Shown piece by piece: positions 1 through 56,766 of a DNA stretch of 57,130 nucleotides. Source of the stretch: Patescibacteria group bacterium (GTDB taxonomy: Bacteria; Patescibacteriota; Minisyncoccia; Phycocordibacterales; CSBR16-119); NCBI GenBank assembly GCA_030917865.1, contig JAUPTX010000004.1, positions 1-57,130 of the forward strand, read 5' to 3'. Both the position numbers and the translations under genes were made by a program. Under the pieces are notes generated by a model. The model saw nothing but the letters and a program-made list of their open reading frames with translations, was not told the DNA's origin and made no database searches. Positions within the stretch are counted from its first letter, which is position 1. Each line of letters opens with the position of its first letter.

Positions 1-327
1 ACCTTATCACTATTTTCAATCCTATATTGTTTTTACACCGAAAAGGATTTTGTCGTTTCTGTCGGATTGTTCGCCGCCCTCATCTACATCTCTTCACTTT
101 TTAAGTCTTTGTTTGGGAGGGCAAAGATTTCGGCGGATGAAGTTCGTGTCACCGAGGTTCTCTATAGGTTTACACCAAGATACCCAGACGAATCGAATTT
201 TTCCAGGGTTCAGTGCTGGCACATGTCGATGGACATGTTGGCTTTCGCCGGACTTTGGGTCACTGTGTTCTTTGAGTCTTGGGTGTTGCCGTGGATTGTT
301 GAGATGATCCATGCCACATACAGTTAA
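1..327 (+). CDS. Orphan membrane protein, 5'-truncated by window edge (cassette-type unit 1)
   Basis: Frame of ORF 67..327 is open from base 1 (TLSLFSILYCF...); two hydrophobic segments; GC-richer codons; followed by a long hairpin. Confidence 0.6.
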   Translation, partial: TLSLFSILYCFYTEKDFVVSVGLFAALIYISSLFKSLFGRAKISADEVRVTEVLYRFTPRYPDESNFSRVQCWHMSMDMLAFAGLWVTVFFESWVLPWIVEMIHATYS

Positions 328-332
328 GCCAA

Positions 333-361
333 CATCCCCGCGCACGAAGTGCGCGGGGATG
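333..361. terminator. 13-bp GC-rich hairpin between convergent genes
   Basis: catccccgcgcac-gaa-gtgcgcggggatg, perfect inverted repeat followed by ctttgtttt. Confidence 0.8.
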
Positions 362-368
362 CTTTGTT

Positions 369-1883
369 TTATAGCTCCTTCAAAGGATTTGGATGTTTTA
401 TCCCTTCTATTCTCTTATACGCGAGTTCAGAAGATATTAGACATATTGGCATACCGATTCCTGGGTTTGTCCCAGCTCCAACATAGAAAAGATTTTTAAT
501 ATGCTTACTTTTGTTATTTGGTCGTAAAATAGTTTGCTTTAAAGTATGAGCAAGCCCTAAAGCTGTGCCACCAAAGGCGTTGTAATCTGCCTTGAATTCT
601 TCGTGAGTATACATAGATTCGTATTCAATAATCTCTTCAAGGTCGGCAATATCTAAATCTTTTTTCATCATCGCGATAACTTTGTCGCGATATTCTTTTT
701 TCTGTACGTCGGTAAAAGATAGGTGTGACGCGACAGGTACGAGTACAAACAAAGTTTCTTTTCCGGCCGGCGCCACAGATGGGTCACTTTTAGATGGACA
801 AGAAACATAGTAAGAAGGATCGTCAGGGAATTTTGGATTATCGAAAACTTCTTTGAAATTTTTCTTCCAGTCTTGTGAAAATCGTAAGTTGTGGTGAGTG
901 AGAGAGTCAACTTTGCGAGATAGTCCCAAGAAAAGTATAAACGCAGAAGGTCCCATCACTGCTTTGTTCCAATATTTTTCATTATAAGTTCTTTGACTAT
1001 CATCTTTGATTAGGTTCATTTCTGTGAAATTCATATCGGCGTTAGACACTACGAAATCAGCGTAGATAAATTCGTCACTTTCTGTTCTTACTCCTTTTGC
1101 GATACCTTTTTCGCTCAAGATTTCTTTAATAGGCGAAGATGTGTGAATATGCACATCGTATTTTTTAGCGATGTTTTCTAAAGCCTCTATTACTTTATAA
1201 ATTCCGCCGTCTGGGTAGTAAACTCCCATATCAAAATCGATGAAATTCATCATGTTGTAGAGAGCCGGAGTTTTGTCTGGTGCAGATCCTAAGAAAACCA
1301 AAGTATATTCTAAAATCTTTTTTAGTCTGTCATCAGAAAACCATTTATTTAAATAGCTTTCCATTGTTTGAAATGGATTCATTCGAAGGCCTTCTTTTAA
1401 GAAATCTTTTTGCAAGAAATCAAAAATAGAGTTGTAGTTTCTGTACATGAATTTTTCTTTTGCGAGTTCGTATTGCTCGCCAGAGATTTTTAGATATTTT
1501 TTGATTTTTTCTCCTGAACCAGGCTCTAACTTTTCAAAAGTTTCTAAGTCTTTTGAAAGATCTGAGTACATATCTAGTACAGGATACTTTTCATCGCCAG
1601 GAAAGAAAACCCTATAAGAAGGCGAGAGTTTAGTAAGCTTTAAATACTCATTCACGTCTTCGCCTAAAAGTTTGAAAAAGTTTTCAAACACATCTGGCAT
1701 AAGATACCAAGACGGTCCCATATCGAAAACGAAACCGTCTTTTTCAAAGACACTCGCTCTTCCGCCAACTTTTGCGTTTTTTTCATAAAGGCTCACTTTG
1801 TAGCCCTTTTTGCCAAGAAGACACGCAAGACCGAGTCCGCCGATACCTCCACCGATTATCACTACATGTTTTTTCGATACCAT
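369..1883 (-). CDS. crtI: Phytoene desaturase (CrtI family)
   Basis: N-terminal GGGIGG FAD motif, FDMGPSWYLMPD, C-terminal GTALGLAHTLKQT..RP and GAGTNPGIGMP. Confidence 0.92.
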   Translation of the reverse strand: MVSKKHVVIIGGGIGGLGLACLLGKKGYKVSLYEKNAKVGGRASVFEKDGFVFDMGPSWYLMPDVFENFFKLLGEDVNEYLKLTKLSPSYRVFFPGDEKYPVLDMYSDLSKDLETFEKLEPGSGEKIKKYLKISGEQYELAKEKFMYRNYNSIFDFLQKDFLKEGLRMNPFQTMESYLNKWFSDDRLKKILEYTLVFLGSAPDKTPALYNMMNFIDFDMGVYYPDGGIYKVIEALENIAKKYDVHIHTSSPIKEILSEKGIAKGVRTESDEFIYADFVVSNADMNFTEMNLIKDDSQRTYNEKYWNKAVMGPSAFILFLGLSRKVDSLTHHNLRFSQDWKKNFKEVFDNPKFPDDPSYYVSCPSKSDPSVAPAGKETLFVLVPVASHLSFTDVQKKEYRDKVIAMMKKDLDIADLEEIIEYESMYTHEEFKADYNAFGGTALGLAHTLKQTILRPNNKSKHIKNLFYVGAGTNPGIGMPICLISSELAYKRIEGIKHPNPLKEL

Positions 1884-2704
1884 AGATATGTTTTAAAAGT
1901 TATAATAATTTTTTGGAAAATATTTGTTTTCGCTCTTTTTCGGAAGACATCGTAGTCTTGTTTTTCTATTTCGTCTAATATCGCTTCATAAAGATTAGAA
2001 GAAAGTAGTATAGGAAACTTTGCTTTTGGGTGAATGAATTTTATACCGTCTCTTGATTTGTTAAATAAAATTCTGGCTTGGTCTATTTTAAATTTTACAA
2101 AAGGTCGGCACATTCTTTGGTTTTTGACATCTTCTAAATCTAGTTCGTATTTTTTTAGTTCATCTTCTGGAATATATATACGACCTCTTTTTTGATGGTC
2201 GTCTTTTGTGTCACGTAAGAAATTAGTGAGTTGCATCGCTTCACCTAGAGCTTTTGCATAAGGTTTGGCTTCTTCTGTTAGGCTTCCTGTGATTTGAAGC
2301 ATAATAAGTCCGATAACAGTTGCCGAGCCGTACATGTAATCTTCTAGTTCTTTCATATTTTTATATGACTTCTTTTCTAAATCCATTTGCATGGATTTGA
2401 TAAAGCTTTCGGTAAATTCTTTTTTAATTTTCCATTTTTTAGCGACTTTTATAAAAGCTCGCATTTCAGGCCTTGCCACACTTTCACCTTTTTCTGCTTT
2501 TCTCCAGTCCGCTATCCAGCTTTCAAAATCTTCTTTGGCTTTTATTTTATTTTCCGTCTCGTCGACTATATCGTCGAGTTTTCGAACCCAGGCATAAAAA
2601 GCATAAGTTGCGAGTCTTATTCTTTTAGGAAAAAATCTTGTTGCGAAGTAGTAGGCTTTTCCGTGCTTTTTTTGTACTTTTTTACAATACTGCCAGTCGT
2701 TCAT
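1862..2704 (-). CDS. crtB: Phytoene/squalene synthase (CrtB)
   Basis: YYFATRFFP, RKLDDIVDE, MQLTNFLRD and GRIYIP motifs; probable start ATG 2704, just after the crtE stop. Confidence 0.9.
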   Translation of the reverse strand: MNDWQYCKKVQKKHGKAYYFATRFFPKRIRLATYAFYAWVRKLDDIVDETENKIKAKEDFESWIADWRKAEKGESVARPEMRAFIKVAKKWKIKKEFTESFIKSMQMDLEKKSYKNMKELEDYMYGSATVIGLIMLQITGSLTEEAKPYAKALGEAMQLTNFLRDTKDDHQKRGRIYIPEDELKKYELDLEDVKNQRMCRPFVKFKIDQARILFNKSRDGIKFIHPKAKFPILLSSNLYEAILDEIEKQDYDVFRKRAKTNIFQKIIITFKTYLWYRKNM

Positions 2705-2705
2705 T

Positions 2706-8024: not shown

Positions 8025-8053
8025 AAGCCCCCGCCTGTCTTTGGCGGGGGCTT
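8025..8053 (-). terminator. GC-rich terminator of unit 2
   Basis: aagcccccgcc-tgtcttt-ggcgggggctt. Confidence 0.8.
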
Positions 8054-8059
8054 GCGTAA

Positions 8060-8419
8060 CTAAGTCATGACAACGCCTCTAGATATTAGTTGGTCCTTTA
8101 GCTTTCCTTCTGGGAGCGGAACCCATTGTGGATTGGTATGTCTATTTATTAAGATTTCCAATTCCTTGGTTTTCCGGTTTTGCCTCAGGAAGCTACTATT
8201 AAGTCTGCCAAATATGATTCCTGGGTTTTTTCTTAGCTTGCCATCATTATTTTTTAGATAGTCTGGGGTTAGGTTGTAATAGTCATAGTCATCGTCGGAA
8301 TGGCGTTTAGTTGTTTTTTCTTTTTTTATTTTAGAGTACAAGATAATTATTCTGAACAATGAAAAAATAAATAATCCAATCCAAGATATTATCATCAGGA
8401 TGTTTACGTGTTTTTCCAT
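8060..8419 (-). CDS. Orphan single-TM protein (cassette-type unit 2)
   Basis: N-terminal TM helix; TATAAT and leader aaccaaaaagcactgacc upstream on - strand; own hairpin. Confidence 0.7.
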   Translation of the reverse strand: MEKHVNILMIISWIGLFIFSLFRIIILYSKIKKEKTTKRHSDDDYDYYNLTPDYLKNNDGKLRKNPGIIFGRLNSSFLRQNRKTKELEILINRHTNPQWVPLPEGKLKDQLISRGVVMT

Positions 8420-8468
8420 GGTCAGTGCTTTTTGGTTATTATATACAAAATTTAAGATTAGGGAATAT

Positions 8469-11181: not shown

Positions 11182-11217
11182 AAAAGAACCCTCACTCTTT
11201 TGAGTGCGGGTTCTTTT
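11182..11217. terminator. Hairpin overlapping stop codon of unit 3
   Basis: aaaagaaccc-tcactc-tttt-gagtg-c-gggttctttt. Confidence 0.65.
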
Positions 11218-43942: not shown

Positions 43943-43945
43943 GTT

Positions 43946-45444: not shown

Positions 45445-45488
45445 TTAAGTTGGATTAGAACAAATTAAACCACCAAAACCAAGAAATC

Positions 45489-45878: not shown

Positions 45879-45891
45879 GTCCGAATAGGGC

Positions 45892-45928
45892 AAAAGGGGT
45901 CGAGCATGACAATGGCTCGACCCCTTTT
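45892..45928 (+). terminator. Terminator of unit 10
   Basis: aaaaggggtcgagc-atgacaatg-gctcgacccctttt. Confidence 0.85.
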
Positions 45929-45962
45929 AATTTTTAGGTAAAGTTTGATAAAATGTTTTTAT

Positions 45963-46940: not shown

Positions 46941-46950
46941 TTAAAAAATA

Positions 46951-47550: not shown

Positions 47551-47552
47551 AC

Positions 47553-47579
47553 AAAAACCGCCCTGATAGGCGGTTTTTT
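47553..47579. terminator. Bidirectional terminator
   Basis: aaaaaccgcc-ctgata-ggcggtttttt. Confidence 0.8.
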
Positions 47580-47584
47580 GTTTA

Positions 47585-48250
47585 TTATGGTCTTGCAACC
47601 AGTGTGAATTCTAGAGTGAAAATATCTTTTATAACATTGTCACCCAAGTTGTCAAAAAAGCTTTCTGATCCAAATCTTACGTTCCATTTTGATCGGTCAA
47701 CTTCTGCAACTCCTGCCAAAATTACATTTCCACTATCTGTTTTAACATCTGCATTAACTGAAAGTTCGTTTGTCTGACCTTTTAGAGTTAATTCTCCATT
47801 TAGTATATATTTATCTCCAGATTTTTCTACAGATTTTACAATGTATTTTGCTTCAGGGTATGTTTCCGTTTCAAAAAAATCTGCTGATTTTAAGTGTCTT
47901 GTTAAACCGTCTTGTCCGTCACCTTTTCCTGTTGTAATCGCCGCTAGAGAGTTCATATCGAAAACGATTTCTCCTCCTGACACTTTTCCAGATTCCATAT
48001 TTATAAATCCAGATTTAATATCTATCTTACCAGTGTCAAAATAATCAACTATGATTTTTTTGCCTCCGATCCATTTTATGTTGGCATCTTCTTTATTGAA
48101 AACAAATGTTCCTGATAAGTCTTTTGAAGGCTCTTCTCCTTTTATTTCTGGCGTTGATATGGTTATATCTCCAGACTGTTTGTTTTTACTAAAGTAAAAA
48201 ACTCCTAAAACTATAATTCCTAAAATTAAAATCGGTAATAATGCTTTCAT
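47585..48250 (-). CDS. YceI-like polyisoprenoid-binding protein
   Basis: HLKSADFFETETYPEAKY, GELTLKG, VDRSKWNVRFGS. Confidence 0.88.
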   Translation of the reverse strand: MKALLPILILGIIVLGVFYFSKNKQSGDITISTPEIKGEEPSKDLSGTFVFNKEDANIKWIGGKKIIVDYFDTGKIDIKSGFINMESGKVSGGEIVFDMNSLAAITTGKGDGQDGLTRHLKSADFFETETYPEAKYIVKSVEKSGDKYILNGELTLKGQTNELSVNADVKTDSGNVILAGVAEVDRSKWNVRFGSESFFDNLGDNVIKDIFTLEFTLVARP

Positions 48251-48325
48251 TGTTTTTAAATTATTAATAATTAATCCCATATCTGGAATTTTAACACATA
48301 TTTTTTGGTGCTATAATATATCTGT

Positions 48326-48538
48326 ATGAAAAAAATAAATTTAGGTTATTTTGTTAGAAATCTGTCAATAGTTGTTGGACTCGTTTTAATCTGGCGAGGT
48401 GTTTGGTATATACTCGACTACATCGACGTGGCGTTTTTAGGTGGAAGTCATACATTTTCTGCTTTAGGTGGGATAATTTTAGGACTTATAATACTTTACG
48501 CACCAGACGGAGATTTGAAAGAGATCAGTAAATTATAG
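48326..48538 (+). CDS. Small membrane protein
   Basis: Two TM helices, LIWRGVW motif. Confidence 0.65.
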   Translation: MKKINLGYFVRNLSIVVGLVLIWRGVWYILDYIDVAFLGGSHTFSALGGIILGLIILYAPDGDLKEISKL

Positions 48539-48541
48539 AAA

Positions 48542-48829
48542 ATGAAAAAATTTAGTTTTTCCGGAAAAGTCTTTGTTTGGCCAGGAGGTTTAGGCTGGTA
48601 TTTTGTTTACTTGCCGAAAGATTTAGTGGAAAAAATAAAAAAAAATTCTAGTGTTCACGGCGCCGGCTTTGTTAAAATTAAAGCAACTGTTGGCAAAACA
48701 GATTGGCAGACGTCACTTTTTCCTTTCAAGAGAGAAAATACCTTTCTTATTTGTATTAAAAAGTCAGTTCGAGAGAAAGAAGATGTTTTTCCTGGAGAAG
48801 AAATAAAAGTGTCTTTTTCTTTGATTTAA
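48542..48829 (+). CDS. DUF1905 family protein
   Basis: WYFVYLP, VKIKATVGKTDWQTSLFP, IKKSVREKE. Confidence 0.8.
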   Translation: MKKFSFSGKVFVWPGGLGWYFVYLPKDLVEKIKKNSSVHGAGFVKIKATVGKTDWQTSLFPFKRENTFLICIKKSVREKEDVFPGEEIKVSFSLI

Positions 48830-48838
48830 TTTTATCTA

Positions 48839-48980
48839 TTGCAATTTATAACATTCTGTGTTATTATACTAAAACAATCAAATATTGTTCTGTAGATTTC
48901 CGAAAGTTATAAAATTTCGATGTTCTATGTGCAATCGAGATTTTATAATTTAAAGCCAGATTTACTGGCTAGTTAACAAT
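48839..48980 (+). promoter_or_regulatory. Promoter and structured 5' leader of DEAD-box helicase
   Basis: TTGCAA..TGtTATTAT promoter; inverted repeat ttataaaatttcgat/atcgagattttataa and small hairpin agccag/ctggct. Confidence 0.5.
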
Positions 48981-50222
48981 ATGGACAATAAAAAATCTAA
49001 TAATAGATCTTTTAGTAAATCAAAAAGATTTTCAAAAGATAAACCAAAGGGAGGATTTAAAAAATTTGGAGGAGGTGGAAGAAGAGGGGCTTCTTCTAAC
49101 AAAAGACGAGGACCAAGAAAAAGTACAGCAGATGTGTCGAGATTCGTTAAGAAAGCGACACCTTCTGTAGAAGAAAAGGCCTTACCCATAAAGCATCTTT
49201 TTTCTGATTTTAATTTTTCAGAAGATTTACAAAAAAACTTAGAAAGTAAAAAATTCGTAACACCAACTCATATTCAAGACGAGTCCATTCCTTTCATTAT
49301 CGACGGAAGAGATATCGTGGGTCTTGCAAATACTGGTACTGGAAAAACTGGTGCATTTCTTTTACCTTTAATAGATAAAGTTTTCAAAGACAAAAAACAA
49401 AAAGTTTTAATTCTTGCACCTACAAGAGAACTTGCTATGCAAATAGACAAAGAATTTAGAGCTTTTTCTTATGGGATGAGAATATATTCTGCTATGTGTG
49501 TTGGAGGTATGCCAATCTGGAAACAAATAAATGACCTTGCTAGAAATCCTAATTTCATAATCGGAACTCCAGGAAGAATTAAAGATTTAAGCGAAAGAGG
49601 AAAAATAAATTATGGAGCAATAAACAATATTGTTCTAGATGAAGTGGATCACATGTTAGATATGGGCTTCGTTGAGCCAATAACAGAGATTTTAAATAAT
49701 CTTAAAAAAGAGAGACAGTCTTTGTTTTTCTCCGCAACAATGCCAGAAAATATTAAAAAACTAATAAGTAAATTCACAGAAAATCCTGTTATTGTAGAAG
49801 TTGCTTCAAAAAACAATATAAACAATATTGATCAAGATATTATCAAGGTTACAGAAAGTGAAAACAAATTCCCAAGACTAGTTGAGCTTTTAAAAGAGCC
49901 GGGTTTCGATAAAGTTATAATTTTCATTGAAACAAAAAGAGGTGCCGACAAACTTTCTAGCGATTTGTTTAAAGAAGGATTTTTGGTTGACTCTATTCAC
50001 GGAGACAAAAGACAAGGTCAAAGAAAAAGAGCAATCGATTCTTTTGATAGAAATAAAATAAAAGTTCTTGTTGCTACAGATGTGGCTGCTAGAGGTCTTG
50101 ATATTGATGGTATTACTCACGTTATAAACTACACAGTGCCTGGAACAAACGAAGACTATACTCACAGAATAGGAAGAACAGGACGAGGTGGTAAAAAGGG
50201 GGTTGCTCTGACATTCGTTTAA
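48981..50222 (+). CDS. DEAD-box RNA helicase (DEVD variant)
   Basis: ANTGTGKT, PTRELA, TPGR, DEVD, SAT, ARGLD, HRIGRTGR. Confidence 0.95.
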   Translation: MDNKKSNNRSFSKSKRFSKDKPKGGFKKFGGGGRRGASSNKRRGPRKSTADVSRFVKKATPSVEEKALPIKHLFSDFNFSEDLQKNLESKKFVTPTHIQDESIPFIIDGRDIVGLANTGTGKTGAFLLPLIDKVFKDKKQKVLILAPTRELAMQIDKEFRAFSYGMRIYSAMCVGGMPIWKQINDLARNPNFIIGTPGRIKDLSERGKINYGAINNIVLDEVDHMLDMGFVEPITEILNNLKKERQSLFFSATMPENIKKLISKFTENPVIVEVASKNNINNIDQDIIKVTESENKFPRLVELLKEPGFDKVIIFIETKRGADKLSSDLFKEGFLVDSIHGDKRQGQRKRAIDSFDRNKIKVLVATDVAARGLDIDGITHVINYTVPGTNEDYTHRIGRTGRGGKKGVALTFV

Positions 50223-50236
50223 TACTTTTTAGATGT

Positions 50237-50265
50237 TTGACATATAAATATAATCGTGTTATATT
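50237..50265 (+). promoter_or_regulatory. Sigma70 promoter of unit 11
   Basis: TTGACA-N17-TATATT with extended TG. Confidence 0.8.
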
Positions 50266-50294
50266 ACAGACAAACCAAACCGACCTTTAGAGAG

Positions 50295-50600
50295 ATGAAC
50301 TACAGCAACACCGCACACACTGGCTCTGAAAATCCGAAGAGTCTCGATCAGTTCGCCCTTTCTCCTGAATCCGGCGTAATGCCGATCCTTTCTGGGTCGA
50401 CGGCACTTGAAAAATTCAAGGCCTTACCCGAAACGGAAAGGTTCGGACGAATGTTTCAGGGAGCATTCTCTGGACCGGATGAGAAAGTTGAGCATTGGCT
50501 CAATACAACTCACGCGCAATGGCGCGTCACGCCCCGGGCGATGATACTGTGTGGTCGTATGAATGAGGTCTTGGACTTCATCCGAAGCGCCATCAAGTAG
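50295..50600 (+). CDS. Orphan protein (unit 11)
   Basis: Probable start MNYSNT after leader acagacaaaccaaaccgacc; GC-rich codons. Confidence 0.72.
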   Translation: MNYSNTAHTGSENPKSLDQFALSPESGVMPILSGSTALEKFKALPETERFGRMFQGAFSGPDEKVEHWLNTTHAQWRVTPRAMILCGRMNEVLDFIRSAIK

Positions 50601-50618
50601 CACGCCGACACGAATTGG

Positions 50619-50653
50619 AAAGCCTACCCGTACGGGGTGGGCTTTTCTTTTTT
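50619..50653 (+). terminator. Terminator of unit 11
   Basis: aaagcctaccc-gtacg-gggtgggcttt followed by T-run. Confidence 0.85.
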
Positions 50654-50695
50654 ATTTGCTAAAATATAGATATTAGTAAATTAATTTATCTCAAA

Positions 50696-51097
50696 ATGAA
50701 AAAAGGATACAAAGACAATATTGAAAAACTTACAATACAAAATCAAAGCTTTAGAAAAGTTTTATACACTGCAAAAAATATACAACTTGTTCTGATGTCT
50801 CTTCTTCCTGGTGAAGATATCGGGCTTGAGGTTCATCATGAAAACGATCAGTTTTTTAGATTTGAAGCAGGAGAGGGAAGGGTGTTTATTGATGGAACAT
50901 CTTACGATGTGGCAGACGGCGATGTGGTGATAGTTCCAGCGGGCTCTGAACATAATGTTATAAATATGAGTGACAGCGAAAGACTTAGTTTCTATACAAT
51001 TTATTCACCATCTCATCATAAAGACGGAATCGAAAGAATAACCAAAGAAGATGCAATGAGAAATGAAGAAGATTTTGATGGTGTTACAACAGAATAA
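50696..51097 (+). CDS. Cupin domain protein
   Basis: QLVLMSL.PGEDIGLEVH..DQFFRFE.GEG, VPAGSEHNVIN. Confidence 0.9.
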   Translation: MKKGYKDNIEKLTIQNQSFRKVLYTAKNIQLVLMSLLPGEDIGLEVHHENDQFFRFEAGEGRVFIDGTSYDVADGDVVIVPAGSEHNVINMSDSERLSFYTIYSPSHHKDGIERITKEDAMRNEEDFDGVTTE

Positions 51098-51122
51098 TAA
51101 TTAAAAAATTATTTTTATAAAT

Positions 51123-51338
51123 ATGAAAAATAAAAACATTGGCAAAACAGATAGAGTAATAAGAGCTTTACTTTCTTTTGTTTTAATTTGGCAGGGAATA
51201 GAAACTTCAAATATTGTAATTTTAATCATTGCCGGAATACTTCTTTTTACAGCTGTGTTTAGCTGGTGCGGTTTATATACTCTTTTGGGTATAAATACTT
51301 GTAAAGCATGTAAGGTCGAAGATAAGAAGGTTGATTAG
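51123..51338 (+). CDS. DUF2892 family small membrane protein
   Basis: KNIGKTDRVIR, WCGLYTLLGINTC. Confidence 0.85.
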   Translation: MKNKNIGKTDRVIRALLSFVLIWQGIETSNIVILIIAGILLFTAVFSWCGLYTLLGINTCKACKVEDKKVD

Positions 51339-51350
51339 TATAGAAACAGA

Positions 51351-51379
51351 AAAAGGGGGCGCCGTGGGCGCCCCCTTTT
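51351..51379. terminator. GC-rich terminator of unit 12
   Basis: aaaagggggcgcc-gtg-ggcgccccctttt. Confidence 0.85.
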
Positions 51380-51383
51380 CTTT

Positions 51384-52667
51384 TTAATGGTTCATCAGCC
51401 AAAAAGTGCCGATGGCTGCAACATAGCCAAGTGTTGCAGGTAATGACATTTTCCTGATATACCAACCGAAGTTAATTTTCAGGATACCCATTACTGCGAC
51501 ACCTGCTGCTGAGCCGATGATCAGAATGCTTCCGCCCGTACCAGCACAGAGAGCCAACAGTTGCCAGAATGTATGGTCTTGTTGGTATACTTCCACGCCA
51601 TACATTACCATGGCTGCCGCTACGAGTGGCACGTTGTCAACTATTGCTGACAGAACACCGATTGCTGTTGTGATGCCGTAAATGTTACCAATTTGGGCAT
51701 CAAGCATTTTACCGGTCAGTGCTAGCACTCCAGATGTTCCGAGTCCTCCTACTGCGAGTAGGATACCTAAGAAGAAAAGAATGCTGGTGTGATCGATTCT
51801 TCCAAGAACAGAAGATATCGTCATGTGTTGACGAGCCTTCCATTTTGGATGTCTGTTGTGTATGAACTCAGTGAAGGACACCAAGACACCAAGCCCCCCC
51901 ATTATCCCGAGGAAGGGTGGAAGGTGTGTGTAGTTCTTAAAGACTGGCACTGATATCAGAGATACAATGCCAAGCCAGAACACAGTGTTCTTTTCCCATC
52001 TTTCCAGATGCGAGGTACCACCTTCGGGACCTTCTTTGTGAGTCACCTGTTCGATTGGGCCACTCGTGGTAAAGCTGAGTGTTAGGATTGCCACAACAAG
52101 GCAAACAATGCTTGGCAACAGGAGAGACTTGATTACCCCCATTGCTGTGACTTGTCCACCCACCCAGAGCATGATTGTTGTTACGTCACCAATTGGAGAC
52201 CATGCACCGCCAGCATTTGCTGCGATGATTACAAGTCCCGCCAGCGTCCACTTGTCCTCTTGTTTGGCTACGAACTTGTTAAGTAGTGCCACCATAACGA
52301 TTGATGTCGTTAGGTTGTCTAGAACGGCAGACAGACAGAAGGATATACCTCCTATCAACCAGTATAGCTTTATTCTACTGGTTGCTTTGATTCTGTCCGT
52401 GATAATTCGGAAGCCTTCGTGTATGTCTATGACTTCCACGATGGCCATTGCTCCGATAAGAAAGAACAAGATGTTGCCAACGTCTACCATGTGATGAGAG
52501 AACGAGTGCGCCATCTCATCTCCATAAACAAGAGCGAGTATGGTCCAGATGAGAAATGAAATAAAGACAGCCGGGGCCGCCTTATTAAGTCTCAGTGGGT
52601 GTTCCAGCGCTATGGCTGCATAGCCAAGCACGAAGATGACAGAGAGTGTTATTTGTAGAGTATCCAT
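51384..52667 (-). CDS. nhaD: Na+/H+ antiporter, NhaD family (unit 12)
   Basis: FFLIGAMAIVEVID, LDNLTT, AANAGGAWSPIGDVTT, SAIVDNVP, GTGGSILIIGSAAGV; GC-richer than core genes. Confidence 0.93.
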   Translation of the reverse strand: MDTLQITLSVIFVLGYAAIALEHPLRLNKAAPAVFISFLIWTILALVYGDEMAHSFSHHMVDVGNILFFLIGAMAIVEVIDIHEGFRIITDRIKATSRIKLYWLIGGISFCLSAVLDNLTTSIVMVALLNKFVAKQEDKWTLAGLVIIAANAGGAWSPIGDVTTIMLWVGGQVTAMGVIKSLLLPSIVCLVVAILTLSFTTSGPIEQVTHKEGPEGGTSHLERWEKNTVFWLGIVSLISVPVFKNYTHLPPFLGIMGGLGVLVSFTEFIHNRHPKWKARQHMTISSVLGRIDHTSILFFLGILLAVGGLGTSGVLALTGKMLDAQIGNIYGITTAIGVLSAIVDNVPLVAAAMVMYGVEVYQQDHTFWQLLALCAGTGGSILIIGSAAGVAVMGILKINFGWYIRKMSLPATLGYVAAIGTFWLMNH

Positions 52668-52724
52668 CGGGTTCGGGTTTTCGGTTTTTTAAAAGGTTCT
52701 GTACCCGTTAGGGTTTCGGTATGG

Positions 52725-52752
52725 ATTTTACACAATTTTTATGATTATTCAA
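52725..52752 (-). promoter_or_regulatory. Sigma70-like promoter of nhaD
   Basis: On - strand TTGAAT-N16-TAAAAT, then leader ending aaaccgaaaacccgaacccg-ATG. Confidence 0.65.
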
Positions 52753-52808
52753 ATGAATTAATATAAAGAGGTGTTACAATGTTTATATTAAAAATCTTTT
52801 TATTTTTT

Positions 52809-53237
52809 ATGAATAAAGAAAAATTATATAAATTTTTGAGGTTGGCAATGTCTTTTATTTTTCTGTGGGCGTTTTTTGATAAAACTTTTGGCCTTGGTTT
52901 TGCCACAACGGCCGAAAAAGCTTGGATGGCTGAAGGATCACCAACATCGGGCTTTTTGTTAAACGCCACAAAAGGCCCTTTTGCGGATTTTTTTAGAAGT
53001 CTTGCTGATGTTGGTGCCATAGACTTTATATTTATGGCTGGTCTTTTAGGGATTGGACTTTCTTTGCTTTTAAATAAATATGTTAAGTGGGGATCTATAG
53101 CTGGAATTTTAATGATGCTTCTAATGTATTTGGCGTCTTTTCCACCGGAAAATAACCCAATAATAGATGACCATATAATCTATGCTTTGGTTTTTGCTAT
53201 AATAGCTTTTGAGTCAAAATTAAAATTTAAAAAATAA
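52809..53237 (+). CDS. DoxX family membrane protein
   Basis: LRLAMSFIFLWAFFDKTFGLG, GSPT.GFL, NNPIIDDH. Confidence 0.85.
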   Translation: MNKEKLYKFLRLAMSFIFLWAFFDKTFGLGFATTAEKAWMAEGSPTSGFLLNATKGPFADFFRSLADVGAIDFIFMAGLLGIGLSLLLNKYVKWGSIAGILMMLLMYLASFPPENNPIIDDHIIYALVFAIIAFESKLKFKK

Positions 53238-53243
53238 GTTATT

Positions 53244-53612
53244 ATGTTAAAGAAAATAATATTAGTTTTATTGGTTGTGGTTGCTGGTTTTTATATTTAC
53301 AATAGTGTGTCGGTAGAAGAAATGTCTTCTGTGTCTTCAAAATTAAAGGCAGATACTTTCACTGCCGTTTTGGAAGAGGTGAATACTGGATGTTTTGCAG
53401 ATGCAGAATGTTATATTGTCGCTGACGGTAAACATGTTACAGCTATTATGGGCTGGAGCACTGAAACTGTTGGAAAGGTTGAAGGTGTAGAAGGTTTTGG
53501 TGATTTAGAAAGCCATATTGGTAAAAATATTGAAGTTTATGCACAAGATTTAGGAGAAGGTAAATATACTCTATATGGCAGCGAGGGTTTTTATATAAAA
53601 CTTTTAAACTAA
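53244..53612 (+). CDS. Membrane-anchored exported hypothetical protein
   Basis: N-terminal TM; GCFADAECYI motif; AT-rich like core genes. Confidence 0.7.
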   Translation: MLKKIILVLLVVVAGFYIYNSVSVEEMSSVSSKLKADTFTAVLEEVNTGCFADAECYIVADGKHVTAIMGWSTETVGKVEGVEGFGDLESHIGKNIEVYAQDLGEGKYTLYGSEGFYIKLLN

Positions 53613-53619
53613 AAAATAT

Positions 53620-53760
53620 TTGAAATAAAAGTTACTAATGATAAAATATAAATAATTAAGTTCGTTAATTCGTTCTACATCGTATAAATTATTGTAGGTT
53701 GGGTGGTTTTGGTGCCCCGTAGAACGATTTCCCCTGCGTATGTGGGGGATTTCGTTTTTT
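53620..53760 (+). ncRNA. Candidate ORF-less small RNA unit
   Basis: TTGAAA-N16-TAAAAT promoter, stem tcgttctac/gtagaacga, terminator tcccctgc-gtat-gtggggga then T-run. Confidence 0.45.
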
Positions 53761-53761
53761 A

Positions 53762-53789
53762 TTGACTTTATTTGAATAAATCGTAATAT
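53762..53789 (+). promoter_or_regulatory. Sigma70-like promoter of unit 13
   Basis: TTGACT-N16-TAATAT. Confidence 0.65.
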
Positions 53790-53807
53790 GGTTAAAAATA
53801 ATGAGCC

Positions 53808-54197
53808 ATGAACATTTTAACCTTAACCCCCACGGAGGAAACTATCCTCGTAATGATTGGCGCTCTTTTTGTAGGTGTTGCGGCTATCTTGTTCGCTTAC
53901 TATGCCTCCTCTGTAAAACCCAAAAGGATTGATCTTAAGTGTAAGGGCTTTGAGAAGGAGGTTGACTCACTTTTTCGTTACATTACTAATGGTCGCCATA
54001 CTGCCGAATTAAGATCTGTGAAGAACAAAGAAGATCTGCGGTCGATAGTTGACGAACTGGTGAGTAAATTCGAAATATCGCACGAGGACGTTGGTGTTGT
54101 AAACACACTTTCGTGCTCTAGGGCTGAGATAATTTCCTGCCTTATGAAAAGGCTTAAGCGCGAAGGAGTTGTCCATATAACTCCAAGCCAGTATTGA
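53808..54197 (+). CDS. Orphan single-TM protein (unit 13)
   Basis: N-terminal TM, soluble helical tail; GC-richer. Confidence 0.72.
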   Translation: MNILTLTPTEETILVMIGALFVGVAAILFAYYASSVKPKRIDLKCKGFEKEVDSLFRYITNGRHTAELRSVKNKEDLRSIVDELVSKFEISHEDVGVVNTLSCSRAEIISCLMKRLKREGVVHITPSQY

Positions 54198-54203
54198 GTG
54201 TTA

Positions 54204-54232
54204 AAGGGTCGCCTGCGCAGCAGGCGACCCTT
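54204..54232 (+). terminator. Terminator of unit 13
   Basis: aagggtcgcctgc-gca-gcaggcgaccctt. Confidence 0.85.
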
Positions 54233-54244
54233 CCTATTTTAATA

Positions 54245-54272
54245 TTGACAAAATAATAATAAATGATATTCT
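54245..54272 (+). promoter_or_regulatory. Sigma70 promoter of unit 14
   Basis: TTGACA-N16-TATTCT with extended TG. Confidence 0.75.
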
Positions 54273-54308
54273 GCAAAAAGACTGTACAAACCAACAGTTA
54301 AGAAGAAA

Positions 54309-54731
54309 ATGAAGGAAGTAAAAACGTACCTGGTCCGCTCTAACCAGCGGGAAGCTCTAAATGAGCTTATTTTCGGTCAGCATGGAATTTTCAAGCTGGC
54401 TGTGGATCTGAATGGTTCCACGAAGGAATATGAGTTCCGTCGCTGGAAGATGCCGATCAACCCATCTCAGCTGGACAAAAGCACTTTGACCATGTTGGTG
54501 TCACAGCTCGACATCGACCTGTTGCCCAAGTTCAACGTCTTTGAGTGGAACATCACTCTTGGTTGTGTTAATGGTAAGAATAGTGGTGATTGCTTTTCCT
54601 GCGCTCTTCTTACTTCAGGCGATAAACAGGCGTTCGTCTTGAGCTTGCCTGAAGGTGGAAGGTTCTATGAAGACGTCGTCCGACCTCTTCGAGCCATGAG
54701 CCCGAGTGCTTCAATGGTGGGGCAATCATGA
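54309..54731 (+). CDS. Orphan protein (unit 14)
   Basis: Leader gtacaaaccaacagttaagaagaaa; GC-rich codons. Confidence 0.72.
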   Translation: MKEVKTYLVRSNQREALNELIFGQHGIFKLAVDLNGSTKEYEFRRWKMPINPSQLDKSTLTMLVSQLDIDLLPKFNVFEWNITLGCVNGKNSGDCFSCALLTSGDKQAFVLSLPEGGRFYEDVVRPLRAMSPSASMVGQS

Positions 54732-54749
54732 TCTGAGGTTCCGTCTTTT

Positions 54750-54781
54750 AGGGTCGGTGCATAGTGCACCGGCCCTTTTTT
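54750..54781 (+). terminator. Terminator of unit 14
   Basis: agggtcggtgca-tag-tgcaccggccct followed by T-run. Confidence 0.85.
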
Positions 54782-54803
54782 GTTTAAAAAAGAAAAAAGC
54801 CGG

Positions 54804-55025
54804 TCATATCCGGCTCAGTTTTTTCTTGTCGATGAGGTATTGAAGCCTCATCGCAATTGTGAACACTGCCATTCCTCCGAAGAAGAATAGTGTGGCAAGG
54901 ATGTATGACAGCAGCTGTCCAATGACATCTTCAAGATTGTTTCTGAAGATGACACCAAAGATGCCTATGTAGAAAGTCACCATTCCAAGTAATATCAGGT
55001 TTCTTTTTTCGAGTTTGGTTCTCAT
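54804..55025 (-). CDS. Orphan two-TM protein (unit 15)
   Basis: Promoter TTGACT-N17-TATAAA on - strand (55074-55046), leader aaacctgcacaaca; stop codon inside hairpin agccgg-tcatat-ccggct. Confidence 0.7.
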   Translation of the reverse strand: MRTKLEKRNLILLGMVTFYIGIFGVIFRNNLEDVIGQLLSYILATLFFFGGMAVFTIAMRLQYLIDKKKLSRI

Positions 55026-55094
55026 TGTTGTGCAGGTTTAATCCTTTTATATTTAAAAATAAACATAAAGTCAAATTTTTGTTATAATTTATTT

Positions 55095-55829
55095 ATGCTT
55101 AAAAAGATATCTGTATTATTTGTTTTAATTGTTGGAGCTTATTTGGTTTTTAATAATTTAGAAAAAAAAGAAAAAGAAGAAGTTGTTTTTCCTGTAGTTA
55201 AAGAAGAAGAGTCCACTGCAATAGAACTTTGTTTTTATAAAGAAAATTTAGTCAAAGATGGTTTATATGACAAGGCCTTACTTAAAATGTCTTTAAATAA
55301 AGATAAGGTCTCTGGGGAATTTAGAAATTTACCCGCAGAAACAGATAGTAAGGTTGGTGAATTTTCTGGGACTGTTTCTCCTGTTATACCAGAAATGATG
55401 GCCAGAATTGCAGATGCTTGGTGGAATTCTTATGCCGAGGGAATGAATGTGACAGAAGAGCTTCGTATTATTTTTGGTGAAGGCACAGCCTCTGTTGGGT
55501 TTGGTGAGATGGTAGACAGGGGAGATGGAGTTTATGTATACAAAGACAAAGAAAATATTGGTTATTGGCAGGATCTTACGGACGTATCTTGTGACTTTTT
55601 AGACGATAAGATTTTGGTTGAGAAATTTATAAGAGAGAATATAAAAGACTTGTCTCCGGAAAAACCTGTTTTGGGTGGGTCTTGGTATTCCTATAACATA
55701 AAAGTAAATCCTCAAAATAAAAGTGGTGAGTTTACTTATGAAGATGGTCACATAATAGGTGTTGCAACATTTACATACGAAAGAGATGGAGAAAGTGTTA
55801 ATATTCAAAACATATTAAAGATTAAATAA
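55095..55829 (+). CDS. Membrane-anchored exported hypothetical protein
   Basis: N-terminal TM; LCF..L.M....VSGE..GTV beta-rich domain. Confidence 0.75.
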   Translation: MLKKISVLFVLIVGAYLVFNNLEKKEKEEVVFPVVKEEESTAIELCFYKENLVKDGLYDKALLKMSLNKDKVSGEFRNLPAETDSKVGEFSGTVSPVIPEMMARIADAWWNSYAEGMNVTEELRIIFGEGTASVGFGEMVDRGDGVYVYKDKENIGYWQDLTDVSCDFLDDKILVEKFIRENIKDLSPEKPVLGGSWYSYNIKVNPQNKSGEFTYEDGHIIGVATFTYERDGESVNIQNILKIK

Positions 55830-55830
55830 T

Positions 55831-56316
55831 ATGAAAAAATTTTCTCTTCTTATTTTAATAATTATATTTGTGGTTGCTGGTTTTTTCTTTTTGAAAAATA
55901 AAAACCAAGAAGACATTTTAATCAAAACAGACATGCCAGAGAGAAATGAAAAATTATGTTTTGTTTATCAAAAATCCGCCACACAATCTGAGCCTTATTC
56001 AGTAAAAGAAAATTTAGAAATAAAAATAAGTGGAGAAAAAGTGTCAGGAGTTAAAAACGGAACCCAATCGGGTCCAGATATGACTAATGGCTATGAAGGT
56101 TTAATATCCGGAACTATCAAGGGTGATATTTTAGATGTTGTTTTTAGTTATGAAATAGAAGGATCTAAACAAAAAGAGCAAGAAAAATATCTACTTATAA
56201 AAGACGGTATAATGAAATTAAGATATCAGCTAAGAGAAGAAGATGGAATATTGGTGCCAGACATGTCTACAAATCCAAAAGAAATTATCTACAATAAATC
56301 AATTTGTTTAGAATAA
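55831..56316 (+). CDS. Exported hypothetical protein, probable paralog of the upstream gene
   Basis: LCF..LEI.ISGEKVSG..G.ISGT..EG..Q, matching motif order in 55095..55829. Confidence 0.72.
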   Translation: MKKFSLLILIIIFVVAGFFFLKNKNQEDILIKTDMPERNEKLCFVYQKSATQSEPYSVKENLEIKISGEKVSGVKNGTQSGPDMTNGYEGLISGTIKGDILDVVFSYEIEGSKQKEQEKYLLIKDGIMKLRYQLREEDGILVPDMSTNPKEIIYNKSICLE

Positions 56317-56381
56317 TCTATAAAAACTTATAAATTGACTCTTAAATAAAAAAGTGATTAGATAGCTAAAAACCCAACATC

Positions 56382-56723
56382 ATGATGCTCAAGATTGCAA
56401 TCGGAGTAGTGTTTGTGTTTTTACTTCGTTCCTTGTTGACATACACCATATTCATAGACTTCGAAGAAATAGGTCTAACAAAAAGCCAGATCGCATCTCT
56501 TCGCGGTAAAAAACCTTCAGAAGTGCTACTTGTCATGCTATGTGGCTACCATCAAAGGGGTCGATCTGAGCTTCTTCGTCCAGGCTTTGACCGCGATGAC
56601 TTGTACAGTGTTGCTATTGCTCTTGAGAGGGCATACGAGCGCAAATTTGGAGAAAAGCTGGGAATTAGCTCAAATGACAGGAATGAGGTTTTGTCAGAGT
56701 TTATAAAGAAATACACGAGATAG
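56382..56723 (+). CDS. Orphan single-TM protein (unit 16)
   Basis: TTGACT at 56335 (weak -10), leader aaaaacccaacatc, own hairpin. Confidence 0.68.
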   Translation: MMLKIAIGVVFVFLLRSLLTYTIFIDFEEIGLTKSQIASLRGKKPSEVLLVMLCGYHQRGRSELLRPGFDRDDLYSVAIALERAYERKFGEKLGISSNDRNEVLSEFIKKYTR

Positions 56724-56736
56724 TGTTCTTTTACAC

Positions 56737-56766
56737 GGGCCCGTTAATTAGCGGGCTCTTTATTTT
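56737..56766 (+). terminator. Terminator of unit 16
   Basis: gggcccgtta-at-tagcgggctc followed by T-run. Confidence 0.7.

Follow-up and report, generated by a model that had tools for sequence, protein, structure and literature searches.

The analysis confirmed that dozens of short, GC-richer and fast-changing genes lie between the housekeeping operons of a tiny AT-rich genome. Sixteen of these units are found in the window, the 57,130-nucleotide stretch of a Patescibacteria contig analysed here, all at the positions where the first-pass annotation had placed them (Table 1). The dispersed set is distinct in composition and architecture, as that annotation had proposed, both genome-wide and in sister genomes. 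With a probability of about 0.5, the units represent an accessory gene pool with high turnover that is fed by horizontal transfer and resembles phage morons in its organisation. A literature search at listing level found no description of a GC-shifted cassette class in CPR genomes. The CPR label itself is consistent with pilin-like N-termini and with genomes of 0.5-1.0 Mb across well over 100 families of the order.

Composition of the gene class

Our own gene call yielded 504 genes. They were divided into high-GC3 (at least 0.42, n = 60) and low-GC3 (below 0.36, n = 413) genes, and 31 intermediates were dropped. The high-GC3 genes, ~12% of all genes, range from 0.42 to 0.86 against a main mode of 0.27, and are short and for the most part orphans. 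The expected bimodality was recovered in part. Two Gaussians (0.268, sd 0.052, 82%; 0.457, sd 0.109, 18%) fit the 504 genes better than one (BIC -1077 vs. -900), but the distribution is a broad right shoulder rather than two clean peaks. Every ORF of the 16 units lies at or above 0.42 except U2. The ORFs are unrelated to each other, as reported, with a single weak pair (E 4e-4) among 62 proteins, and NhaD is indeed the only recognisable product of the 17 unit ORFs.

The C/G-ending codons had been taken as a distinctive set, possibly tuned to another translation system. At codon position 3, high-GC3 genes are near-uniform (A.24, C.27, G.25, T.25), compared with A.37, C.13, G.14 and T.36 in ordinary genes. 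GC1 (.523 vs..459) and GC2 (.380 vs..325) are raised as well, and the proteins are richer in R, G, P and A and poorer in K, I, N and E. The shift is thus one of bulk composition, not of codon choice. It is seen at codon positions 1, 2 and 3 and for G as well as C, which speaks against a tuned set; adaptation to another translation system is not supported.

Expression format of the units

A GC-rich terminal hairpin followed by a T-run was found by our own scan in all 16 units. Its energy is -20 kcal/mol or lower in 12 units (U1-U5, U7, U9-U14) and -11 to -15 kcal/mol in the other four (U6, U8, U15, U16). At the unit start, TTGAnn-N16-18-TAnnnT is present in 10/16 units (U4, U5, U6, U8-U14) and a near-match in three (U1, U15, U16), and no -35 match was seen in U2, U3 and U7. 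Flush placement was reproduced; the -35 box lies 0-20 nt past the previous stop codon or hairpin in U4, U6, U8, U9, U11, U13, U14 and U16. One ORF per unit is the rule, broken by U4, which has two. U1 is only partly contained in the window, as its start and promoter are on a neighbouring contig.

This format is not equally common around ordinary AT-rich genes. A terminator of -12 or lower follows 43/60 high-GC3 and 71/413 low-GC3 genes (p 4e-17), and the promoter motif precedes 25/60 and 44/413 (p 2e-8), respectively. Both together occur in 18/60 vs. 5/413 genes, and in 13/46 vs. 3/176 of those shorter than 200 aa. Independently of any ORF call, the 300 nt past 58 strict promoter matches have a median GC of 0.44 vs. 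0.36 for the genome (p 2e-7). A second scanner found 40 terminator-like sites in 37900-57130, compared with 14.1 +/- 4.3 in shuffles. Loose promoter matches in the same region were at chance (56 vs. 52 +/- 7.8), so only near-perfect matches are informative.

The leaders had been described as A/C-rich and free of a Shine-Dalgarno (SD) sequence. Their make-up does differ (A/C vs. A/T), whereas the lack of SD is genome-wide and not specific: GGAG/GAGG lies upstream of 10/395 low-GC3 and 2/60 high-GC3 genes, not above the control window. The 61 promoter-leader regions share nothing past the consensus hexamers and show no extended homology. By sequence, the promoters appear to be of the sigma-70 type, that of the recipient, and not of the Bacteroidota type.

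Table 1. Units in the window and associated features. Promoters are given as -35 box, spacer length and -10 box; terminator energies are in kcal/mol.
Feature	Position	Strand	Promoter	ORF	Terminator (energy)	ORF GC3
U1, 3' part	1-361	+		multi-pass membrane, ends 327	333-361 (-26.0)	0.54
U1, 5' part	contig C6		TTTACA-17-TAAAAA	first 51 codons
U2	8025-8450	-	no -35 match	8060-8419, 119 aa, N-terminal membrane helix	8025-8053 (-23.7)	0.39 (below cut)
U3	11182-11578	-		11192-11578	11182-11217 (-21.2)	0.46
U4	20465-20951	+	TTGACA-16-TATAAT	two, small basic: to 20689; 20701-20901	20921-20951 (-24.3)	0.61, 0.51
Structured repeat copy	29465-29665	+	ends ~15 nt upstream of U5 promoter
U5	29679-30155	+	TTGACA-16-TATAAT	29769-30095, 108 aa, Cys-rich	30116-30147 (-23.0)	0.50
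U6	31848-32517	+	TTGACA-17-TATATT, flush against groEL-like stop	to 32475	32494-32517 (-15.1)	0.57
U7	37940-38848	-		37986-38783, signal peptide, multi-pass membrane	37940-37971 (-26.5)	0.51
U8	42307-42824	+	TTGACC-17-TATTGT	42355-42780, secreted	~42798-42824	0.44
U9	42827-43336	+	TTGACA-16-TATAAT	42902-43288, secreted, Ig-like beta-sandwich	43306-43336 (-20.4)	0.70
U10	45417-45928	+	TTGACA-16-TATAGT	45489-45878, acidic	45892-45928 (-24.4)	0.44
U11	50237-50653	+	TTGACA-17-TATATT	to 50600	50617-50647 (-22.0)	0.57
U12	51350-52752	-	TTGAAT-16-TAAAAT	51384-52667, NhaD Na+/H+ antiporter	51350-51380 (-25.9)
U13	53762-54232	+	TTGACT-16-TAATAT	53808-54197	54204-54232 (-25.0)	0.45
U14	54245-54781	+	TTGACA-16-TATTCT	54309-54731	54750-54776 (-21.8)	0.56
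U15	54797-55074	-	TTGACT-17-TATAAA	54804-55025, small membrane	54797-54816, short hairpin (-11.0)	0.53
U16	56335-56766	+	TTGACT, poor -10	56382-56723, membrane-anchored	56737-56758 (-13.8)	0.43
GC-shifted 602-aa protein	C16:20126-21931			C-terminal module of Bacteroidia type

Turnover in sister genomes

In same-genus genomes, the same slots carry GC-rich TTGACA-driven ORFs that are either very diverged homologues or unrelated. Same-slot homologues were found for nine of the 16 ORFs tested, at only 26-70% amino acid identity, compared with mostly 70-90% for the core. These include U4 (52-70%), U7 (38% in G006, Z 14), U8 (30-37%), U10 (35% in G003; Z 6-7 to slot ORFs of G005 and G001), U11 (Z 8-10 in G003 and G005) and a remote case, U3 (Z 5.0 in G003). 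For the other seven, no same-slot homologue was found and the slots carry other GC-rich TTGACA-driven ORFs; for U2, U5 and U13 none was found in sister slots, U16 has no homologue, U14 none that is clear (Z <=2.7), and the U6 slot of G003 holds an unrelated 207-aa ORF with GC3 0.53. One contig of run X7, from a strain roughly 90% identical, skips U7 (37986-38849). As about half of the units have diverged same-slot homologues in sister species, they are not freshly installed.

The same-slot homologues hold GC3 of.40-.62 at 26-56% identity, while synonymous sites of the core are nearly saturated. A single old transfer with subsequent decay is therefore insufficient, and either repeated replacement or a GC-holding force is needed. 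No decay gradient was seen between genus-shared (9 ORFs, mean GC3 0.53) and unshared (7 ORFs, 0.49) unit ORFs. The gene with GC3 0.86 differs from its G005 orthologue at 43/228 residues but at only 25/185 same-amino-acid codons; the median fraction in 15 core genes of this genome pair is 0.47. Recombination between species is visible at 32509-36294, which is 92-95% identical to G005, compared with 75-80% for the remaining core.

Sources of the units

Among 598 relatives of the U12 NhaD found (one genome per species), the best come from five Flavobacteriales MAGs; at 57-60% identity, they are no more distant than the same-genus copies (46-57%). These five loci have GC3 of.85-.96 and flank GC of.62-.68. 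In the NhaD tree, five own-lineage and five Flavobacteriales sequences form a 100/100 clade within other Bacteroidota. The AU test rejects monophyly of the four same-genus copies (p 0.008), and NhaD is present in only 5/150 other genomes of the order. These data point to Flavobacteriales as the probable source. The GC-shifted 602-aa protein also looks Bacteroidia-like. Its C-terminal module occurs in 105/151 Bacteroidia genomes vs. 1/150 other genomes of its own order, residues 540-594 give a sub-threshold T9SS sorting-domain match (19.9 bits, cut-off 23), and its atlas neighbours are Por_Secre_tail proteins. At least these two members are foreign, as had been suggested for the ORFs, and at least some of the GC-rich genes probably came from Bacteroidota.

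For most unit orphans, no outside source was detected. Only 28 representatives of the U9 family were found among 1.84 billion, and the GC3 0.86 protein has four relatives in 5.8 billion clusters; neither was found in the five Flavobacteriales genomes, barring one signal-peptide match (E 0.008). Two other orphans matched 0/151 Bacteroidia genomes. Matches to Bacteroidia enzymes that cover most of the GC-shifted PRPP synthetase show only 24-33% identity, and for the PurH-N protein the best Bacteroidia match (51%) hardly exceeds the best within its own order (45%).

The units often encode products predicted to be secreted or membrane-bound. With a crude predictor, signal peptides ending in [AGS]Q were found in 7/11 high-GC3 and 6/70 ordinary cases, and Q21 is invariant in 16/16 U9-family members. 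Signal peptides with +1 Gln are described as a hallmark of Bacteroidetes (PMC5837995).

Alternative explanations

It is possible, though rather unlikely, that the units are native, vertically inherited and very fast-evolving genes with a GC content maintained in situ. Selection in strongly transcribed monocistronic messages, acting on mRNA stability, expression or codons, or else GC-biased gene conversion at often-recombining loci would then keep it high. The high GC3 and TTGACA promoters retained by diverged sister homologues, the missing decay gradient, the orphan families confined to the lineage and the recombination noted above would all agree with this, as would U9, whose promoter-leader (~70 nt) shares 84% identity with that of G005, compared with 45-48% for the protein. 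The gene with GC3 0.86 uses ATC (17/17), TTC (7/7), AAG (16/18) and, for Arg, most frequently CGT; this looks more like codon selection than like plain GC pressure, for which another Arg pattern would be expected. Chaperone-like genes (names guessed from size and neighbours) and IF-1 are also slightly high (GC3.31-.43), but ribosomal protein genes are at.20-.33, the class overall has no preferred codons, and GC1, GC2 and amino acid make-up are shifted too. NhaD and the T9SS-tail protein are foreign, and the effects reported for biased gene conversion on bacterial GC3 fall far short of a rise from 0.27 to 0.5-0.86. A chimeric assembly or binning contamination that put GC-richer DNA among AT-rich genes has a negligible chance. 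The bin does include contigs from another, related organism (C5 and C2 vs. C9; C14 vs. C16; 68-82% identity) and has a stated contamination of 3%, but the units are located within long contigs and directly adjoin core genes. Independently assembled sister genomes with the same architecture, and a 9.3-kb contig of another study's run that covers 47899-57130 without difference, contradict an artefact.

A dedicated, integron-like system that places foreign ORFs behind native promoters had also been proposed, and is very improbable. The uniform format, the flush placement and the re-use of slots across species speak for it, and a dispersed, structure-conserved repeat of ~175-200 nt ends ~15-25 nt upstream of the TTGACA box in five units, where it could be a recombination site. 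However, this repeat, which has no Rfam family, adjoins only five of roughly 60 units and has copies elsewhere. Other repeats in the genome are tRNA genes, short paralogue matches, near-duplicate contigs and contig-end overlaps, and the promoter-leader regions lack extended homology. No integrase or recombination site was seen in the window, in line with the first-pass statement that the units lack an integrase, attC site, terminal repeat or transposase; the dispersed repeat adjoining some units corrects that statement. Similarly improbable is a sharper form of the other idea first proposed, in which the products, or even the messages, function in a Bacteroidota host; this function would then explain the retention of host-like composition and export signals. 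The NhaD relatives in high-GC Flavobacteriales, the +1 Gln signal peptides and the T9SS-like tail fit this explanation, as does the glutaminyl cyclase family not found in the genome, a weak point since the genome is only 76% complete. But the promoters resemble those of the recipient, third positions, apart from a few genes, are near-uniform rather than donor-like, and all such signals can be relics of transfer. To our knowledge, no transfer apparatus or host is known for this presumed episymbiont, and the existence of a host is conjecture.

Comparison with known systems

Integron cassettes are promoterless, each ends in attC, and they depend on the IntI integrase and attI. The units are similar in that their ORFs are short, mostly orphan and of foreign composition, unrelated to one another and either dispersed or in arrays, and in that a structure-conserved element adjoins some of them. 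In contrast, the units have their own terminator and promoter (-35 match lacking in 3/16), and no attC-like site follows their ORFs. Flexible genomic islets and replacement islands occupy fixed slots between conserved genes and carry variable, often surface-related genes of atypical composition, with alleles too divergent for vertical descent. The units share the fixed slots and the variable, divergent, atypical genes, but they are single genes in a uniform expression format rather than clusters, shifted towards higher GC in a genome under 1 Mb. Gene transfer between ultra-small episymbionts and hosts, as in Saccharibacteria with Actinobacteria, likewise leaves foreign genes in a reduced genome with nearest relatives in one other phylum; here only two genes were traced to Bacteroidota. 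Phage morons are described as single genes added between conserved genes (PMC3594210), and the units are likewise single genes so inserted. They differ in lying in a cellular chromosome, not a prophage, in their number (~60, 12% of genes), in being GC-richer than the genome and in the persistence of many in the same slot across species. The one unit family scanned (U9) was not found in viral contigs.

Proposed organisation of the units

In the accessory gene pool favoured here, each unit is one short gene (once two) between housekeeping operons, apparently insulated by its own near-consensus sigma-70 promoter and strong intrinsic terminator. As in phage morons, this layout would permit expression of the unit while leaving its neighbours unaffected. 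The genes, or alleles repeatedly replacing them, would be GC-rich because they stem from GC-richer genomes, and the sources may include high-GC Flavobacteriales and other Bacteroidota. Fast turnover may result from gene loss, from replacement within the slot and from protein evolution that is near-neutral or diversifying. The sigma-70 promoters would be native to the recipient, and the uniform format would result from selection for insulated expression, not from a dedicated capture machine.

Architecture of the Units

The assembly (G000) comprises 462,646 bp in 17 contigs with 36% GC and is rated 76% complete; the window is contig C15 in its entirety. All 16 units between housekeeping genes proposed in the first-pass annotation (U1 to U16) were read in the window and confirmed, and the class of GC-shifted genes was then followed through the rest of the genome and into other members of the genus. 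Genes were called by a strand score derived from the first and second codon positions of long ORFs, in which GC content at third positions (GC3) plays no part.

The GC-rich hairpin terminators claimed for the units are present throughout. In the hairpin scan, a GC-rich hairpin and a T-run close 16 of 16 units, with an energy of -20 kcal/mol or lower in 12 units and of -11 to -15 kcal/mol in four. Promoters of the TTGACA/TTGACT type had been described for most units. TTGAnn-N16-18-TAnnnT is found at the start of 10 units and near-matches are found in three, but the -35 box is absent in three. The -35 box is commonly 0-20 nt from the preceding stop codon or hairpin. The description of one short ORF per unit has an exception in U4, which contains two ORFs. 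U1 starts on contig C6, which ends in the same 127 nt with which the window begins; the full U1 ORF is 159 aa long. Another exact 127-nt overlap is seen at the window end, which is the reverse complement of the end of contig C17.

Signals and Composition across the Genome

In our own gene call, GC3 is 0.42 or higher in 60 of 504 genes (high genes) and below 0.36 in 413 (low genes); these cuts were set after inspection of the histogram, and the 31 intermediate genes were left out. GC3 had been expected to be bimodal. A two-Gaussian fit (0.268, 0.457) is strongly favoured over one Gaussian (BIC -1077 vs. -900), but the distribution is single-peaked, with a wide shoulder at 0.42-0.86. The conserved gene for a PaaX-like regulator sits in this shoulder, and therefore GC3 alone is insufficient to define the cassette class.

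Terminators are present for 43/60 high genes versus 71/413 low genes, promoters for 25/60 versus 44/413, and both together for 18/60 versus 5/413. Among genes shorter than 200 aa, both signals accompany 13/46 high and 3/176 low genes. Strict promoter sites (TTGAC[AT]-N16/17-TAnnnT) number 59, compared with 39.2 ± 6.2 in local shuffles; 23 are upstream of the 60 high genes and 15 upstream of the 413 low genes. The median GC content in the 300 nt 3' of these sites is 0.44, versus 0.36 for the genome. In window 37900-57130, a second scanner detected 40 terminator-like sites versus 14.1 ± 4.3 in shuffles, and its loose promoter matches were at the chance level (56 vs. 52 ± 7.8). The class accounts for 17 of 74 genes in the window and 43 of 430 in the remaining genome.

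The class shift is one of bulk composition, not of a selected codon set. In the class, the four bases have nearly equal shares of third positions (A.24, C.27, G.25, T.25), compared with A.37, C.13, G.14 and T.36 in ordinary genes. C-ending and G-ending codons are both increased in all codon families. GC1 and GC2 are also raised, and the proteins are richer in R, G, P and A and poorer in K, I, N and E. Codon use within families is flat, without a defined preferred set common to the ribosomal protein genes, whose GC3 is only.20-.33. The flat codon use, the GC1/GC2 shift and the low GC3 of ribosomal protein genes rule out translational selection as the only cause. The proposal that codon usage is tuned to another translation system, such as that of a host, likewise finds no support in a bulk shift with near-uniform third positions. 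One class gene with sharp codon preference is the GC3 0.86 gene on contig C17. The tRNA set comprises 41 genes, and the first anticodon base is C or G in many of them.

The leaders had been characterized as A/C-rich and free of Shine-Dalgarno (SD) motifs. They are indeed A/C-rich, compared with A/T-rich sequences elsewhere. SD motifs, however, are seen upstream of only 10/395 low and 2/60 high genes, not above a control window. Since they are missing upstream of all gene classes, the SD-free leader is an organism-wide trait and was rejected as a mark of cassettes. Upstream regions are A-rich and G-poor genome-wide. A check of the anti-SD sequence in assemblies G000, G001, G003 and G005 yielded no 16S rRNA gene.

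Features and their positions (C-numbers, contigs of the same assembly)
Feature	Position	Strand	Remark
Structured repeat	window 29465-29665	+	
Structured repeat	C13:52165-52372		
Structured repeat	C17:9125-9335		
Structured repeat	C4:29075-29285		
Structured repeat	C5:257-470		
Structured repeat	C11:3125-3327		
Structured repeat	C2:133-320		
Structured repeat	C17:30950-31150		
Structured repeat	C9:65851-65961		
PaaX-like regulator	window 32526-33071	-	GC3 0.45; 92-94% identical in sister genomes
Stretch shared with G005	window 32509-36294		92-95% identical to G005 contigs; rest of core ~75-80%
U9 signal peptide	window 42902-42967		
GC3 0.86 gene	C17:48326-49012	-	~1 kb past window end; 228-aa orphan; genome GC3 0.27
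PurH-N protein	C3:6912-7598	-	228 aa; GC3 0.54
Secreted protein	C16:20126-21931		602 aa

Proteins Encoded by the Class

Only U12 among the 17 unit ORFs matches a family above a curated cut-off, in agreement with the earlier remark that NhaD alone is recognizable. U12 matches NF038006 (NhaD_1) with 164.8 bits (cut-off 80) and Pfam CitMHS with 101 bits; its score for TIGR00775, 360 bits, is under the cut-off of 577. Among 21 high-GC3 proteins of other contigs, three pass the Pfam cut-off: the PurH N-terminal half, PRPP synthetase and an M23 peptidase. A further match, to glucosaminidase, is under its cut-off. The ORFs were described as unrelated to each other, and among 62 class proteins BLASTP revealed one weak pair (E 4e-4), between the GC3 0.86 protein and the MGS-like PurH-N protein. 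The former has only 4 relatives among 5.8 billion protein clusters. The latter is a stand-alone PurH N-terminal half, composed of the MGS-like domain and the start of AICARFT/IMPCHase, and is found in only 7/150 other genomes of the order.

Many class proteins are predicted to carry signal peptides or membrane helices. U9 and its relatives form a small secreted domain, predicted as a seven-strand Ig-like beta-sandwich (pLDDT 79). This predicted fold shows no PDB match at E <= 0.001 and gives no function, and a viral-contig search with the U9 alignment detected no relative. The units have a three-base periodicity and encode signal peptides and a conserved protein family, which rules out structured RNA instead of protein; no Rfam family was found in the window.

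Slot Occupants in Sister Genomes and Strains

The collection includes seven genomes of the same genus, with core genes at ~75-80% nucleotide identity. Syntenic stretches of G001, G003, G005 and G006 (same genus; both window parts) and of G016 and G017 (other genera; last quarter only) were compared with the same gene calling. Core proteins are 40-96% identical to those of sister genomes, mostly 70-90%, and sister core genes have GC3 of.14-.44.

Sixteen unit ORFs, all except U1, were examined for homologues in the same slot. BLASTP found them for eight ORFs: U4a (65-70% identity), U4b (52%), U7 (38%), U8 (30-37%), U9 (37-47%, with two copies in G005), U10 (35%), U11 (26%) and U12 (46-56%). U3 has a remote homologue in the same slot (Z 5.0). 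With shuffle-tested alignment, additional ORFs from the sister slots proved similar to U10 and U11 (Z 6-10). For the other seven (U2, U5, U6 and U13 to U16), no same-slot homologue was found in the sister stretches. The same-slot homologues retain GC3 of.40-.62 and TTGACA promoters. Slots without a homologue are mostly filled by a different ORF, often GC-rich. For example, the slot 3' of the groEL-like gene contains a 207-aa ORF with GC3 of.53 in G003, which has no similarity to the 202-aa U6 (Z -0.5). In G001, the U12 slot is without NhaD. In ~90%-identical strain contigs, U8 to U10 are present and U7 is skipped (sequencing run X7), although the joint may hold other DNA; in run X6, U8 and U9 are without cover.

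The stretch of high identity to G005 looks like recent recombination between species. Contigs C2 and C5 (versus C9) and C14 (versus C16) are near-duplicates with 68-82% identity, and therefore the bin includes pieces of a second related organism.

Relationship to Bacteroidota

A search with a single NhaD protein gave no match. When the five own-lineage copies were aligned and used as the query against one genome per species, 598 relatives were found. The best five of them are from Flavobacteriales MAGs, with 57-60% identity over the full length, and are as close to U12 as the same-genus copies are. Their loci have GC3 of.85-.96. A tree of 19 rows places the five own-lineage and five Flavobacteriales sequences in one clade (100/100) nested among other Bacteroidota. 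In the AU test, monophyly of the four same-genus copies is rejected (p 0.008), and a grouping of all five own-lineage copies is not (p 0.053). Placements inside the ten-sequence clade are unsure because the own-lineage branches are long. NhaD is present in only 5/150 other genomes of the order.

Judged by foreign nearest relatives, tree conflict and patchy distribution among kin, horizontal acquisition is indicated for two members of the class, U12 NhaD and the secreted protein on contig C16. The last ~160 residues of the latter match many large proteins, and this C-terminal module is found in 105/151 Bacteroidia genomes versus 1/150 others of its own order; the matching genomes here, and in the 106/151 for the PurH-N protein, include G129, which is flagged as unpublished and enters no other result. 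Residues 540-594 match TIGR04183 (T9SS type A sorting domain) with 19.9 bits, below the cut-off of 23. The protein has no Pfam hit at 0.001, and its atlas neighbours carry Por_Secre_tail.

The GC-shifted secreted proteins have signal peptides ending in A-Q or G-Q, resembling the Bacteroidetes Q-rule. An exposed +1 glutamine is a Bacteroidetes feature according to PMC5837995. With a crude predictor, [AGS]Q ends were found in 7/11 high-GC3 versus 6/70 ordinary genes, and the signal-peptide glutamine of the U9 family is invariant in 16/16 members. Neither glutaminyl cyclase family was found in the 76%-complete genome.

Other members are less easily linked to this phylum. The GC3 0.86 protein matched none of five Flavobacteriales genomes; one of the five has a marginal match to the U9 profile. 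Orphans L023 and L017 matched none of 151 Bacteroidia genomes. PRPP synthetase shows only distant similarity to its Bacteroidia counterparts, and its relationships do not indicate acquisition from Bacteroidia. The case for an outside origin of the PurH-N protein is weak. The orphan misses, the tiny size of the orphan families, the distant PRPP synthetase and the indecisive PurH-N result argue against a general Bacteroidota source for the class.

A Dispersed Structured Repeat

The promoter-leader regions have only the hexamers in common; neither a common promoter module nor flanking repeats were found beyond the consensus. The only dispersed repeat family consists of a 175-200-nt element, of which G000 contains nine or more copies and the sister genomes many more. 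All other repeats of the genome stem from tRNA genes, short paralogue matches, near-duplicate contigs or the overlap of contig ends. The element forms two hairpins, one short and one long, with 55 pairs, 26 of which show compensatory changes; slid controls have 2-7 compensated pairs. Pairing holds in 96.8% of cells versus 82.7% in shuffles. It matches no Rfam family. At five loci, a TTGACA promoter starts ~15-25 nt 3' of the element. The first-pass annotation had noted no terminal repeat next to the units; five of them have this dispersed element upstream. Possible identities of the element are a small RNA gene, a mobile element and a hot spot of recombination. The units next to it are too few for it to account for the class. 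With only hexamers shared and the repeat at five units, the dedicated gene-capture route suggested by the first-pass annotation is left without support. No recombinase is apparent among the window ORFs.

Origin and Maintenance of the Class

The listings of a literature search included no report of a GC-shifted cassette class in CPR genomes. Judging from sequence signals, the units resemble phage morons, in which a promoter and a terminator surround a single added gene. The compositional feature of morons presented in PMC3594210 is seen here too: GC3 is.42-.86 in the class versus.27. The location differs: morons lie in phage or prophage genomes, and the neighbours here are a ribosomal protein operon (IF-1 etc.) and conserved core genes. 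Integron cassettes, which go with an IntI integrase and an attI platform, are promoterless ORFs with attC, whereas these units have their own promoters and a simple terminator hairpin after the ORF; the structured repeat is upstream, unlike attC, which follows the cassette ORF.

If the units were old, decaying imports, genus-shared units should be less GC-rich than species-specific ones. The mean GC3 is 0.53 for genus-shared and 0.49 for unshared units, opposite to this expectation. In the same genome pairs, 0.28-0.67 of same-amino-acid codons differ in core genes, so that core synonymous sites are near saturation, while the cassette homologues are still GC-rich. High GC content may result from repeated replacement by fresh GC-rich alleles. 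The incongruence of the NhaD tree supports replacement, as does the comparison of the GC3 0.86 gene with its G005 orthologue, in which 25/185 same-amino-acid codons differ versus a core median of 0.47, with 81% protein identity. The 92-95% identical stretch common to the window and G005 fits the same view. Alternatively, high GC content may be maintained by a local force, which would be selection or biased gene conversion; in one case only, that of the GC3 0.86 gene, sharp codon preference points to selection.

We consider the class to be a high-turnover accessory gene pool, organized in the manner of phage morons and supplied in part by Bacteroidota, with a probability of about 0.5. A more elaborate scenario is quite improbable. 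There, the class would be a genus-wide standing compartment of insulated one-gene units, fed continuously by high-GC Flavobacteriales as the probable host. Secreted products would keep Bacteroidota export marks, the +1 glutamine and a T9SS-type tail, because the host envelope is their site of action or processes them, and the 175-200-nt repeat would mark sites of unit exchange.

Ultra-small bacteria are thought to live on other cells, but few of their partners and interaction genes are known. The signature of a GC3 shift, an own promoter and a strong terminator selects ~12% of genes, which are fast-changing, largely secreted or membrane-bound, and partly Bacteroidota-derived. These genes are thus a narrowed set of candidates for interaction with a partner, and they hint at the lineage to which that partner belongs. 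The class also poses an evolutionary question, namely how genes with GC3 of 0.5-0.86 persist in a genome whose other genes are at 0.27, which strain-level data could answer.
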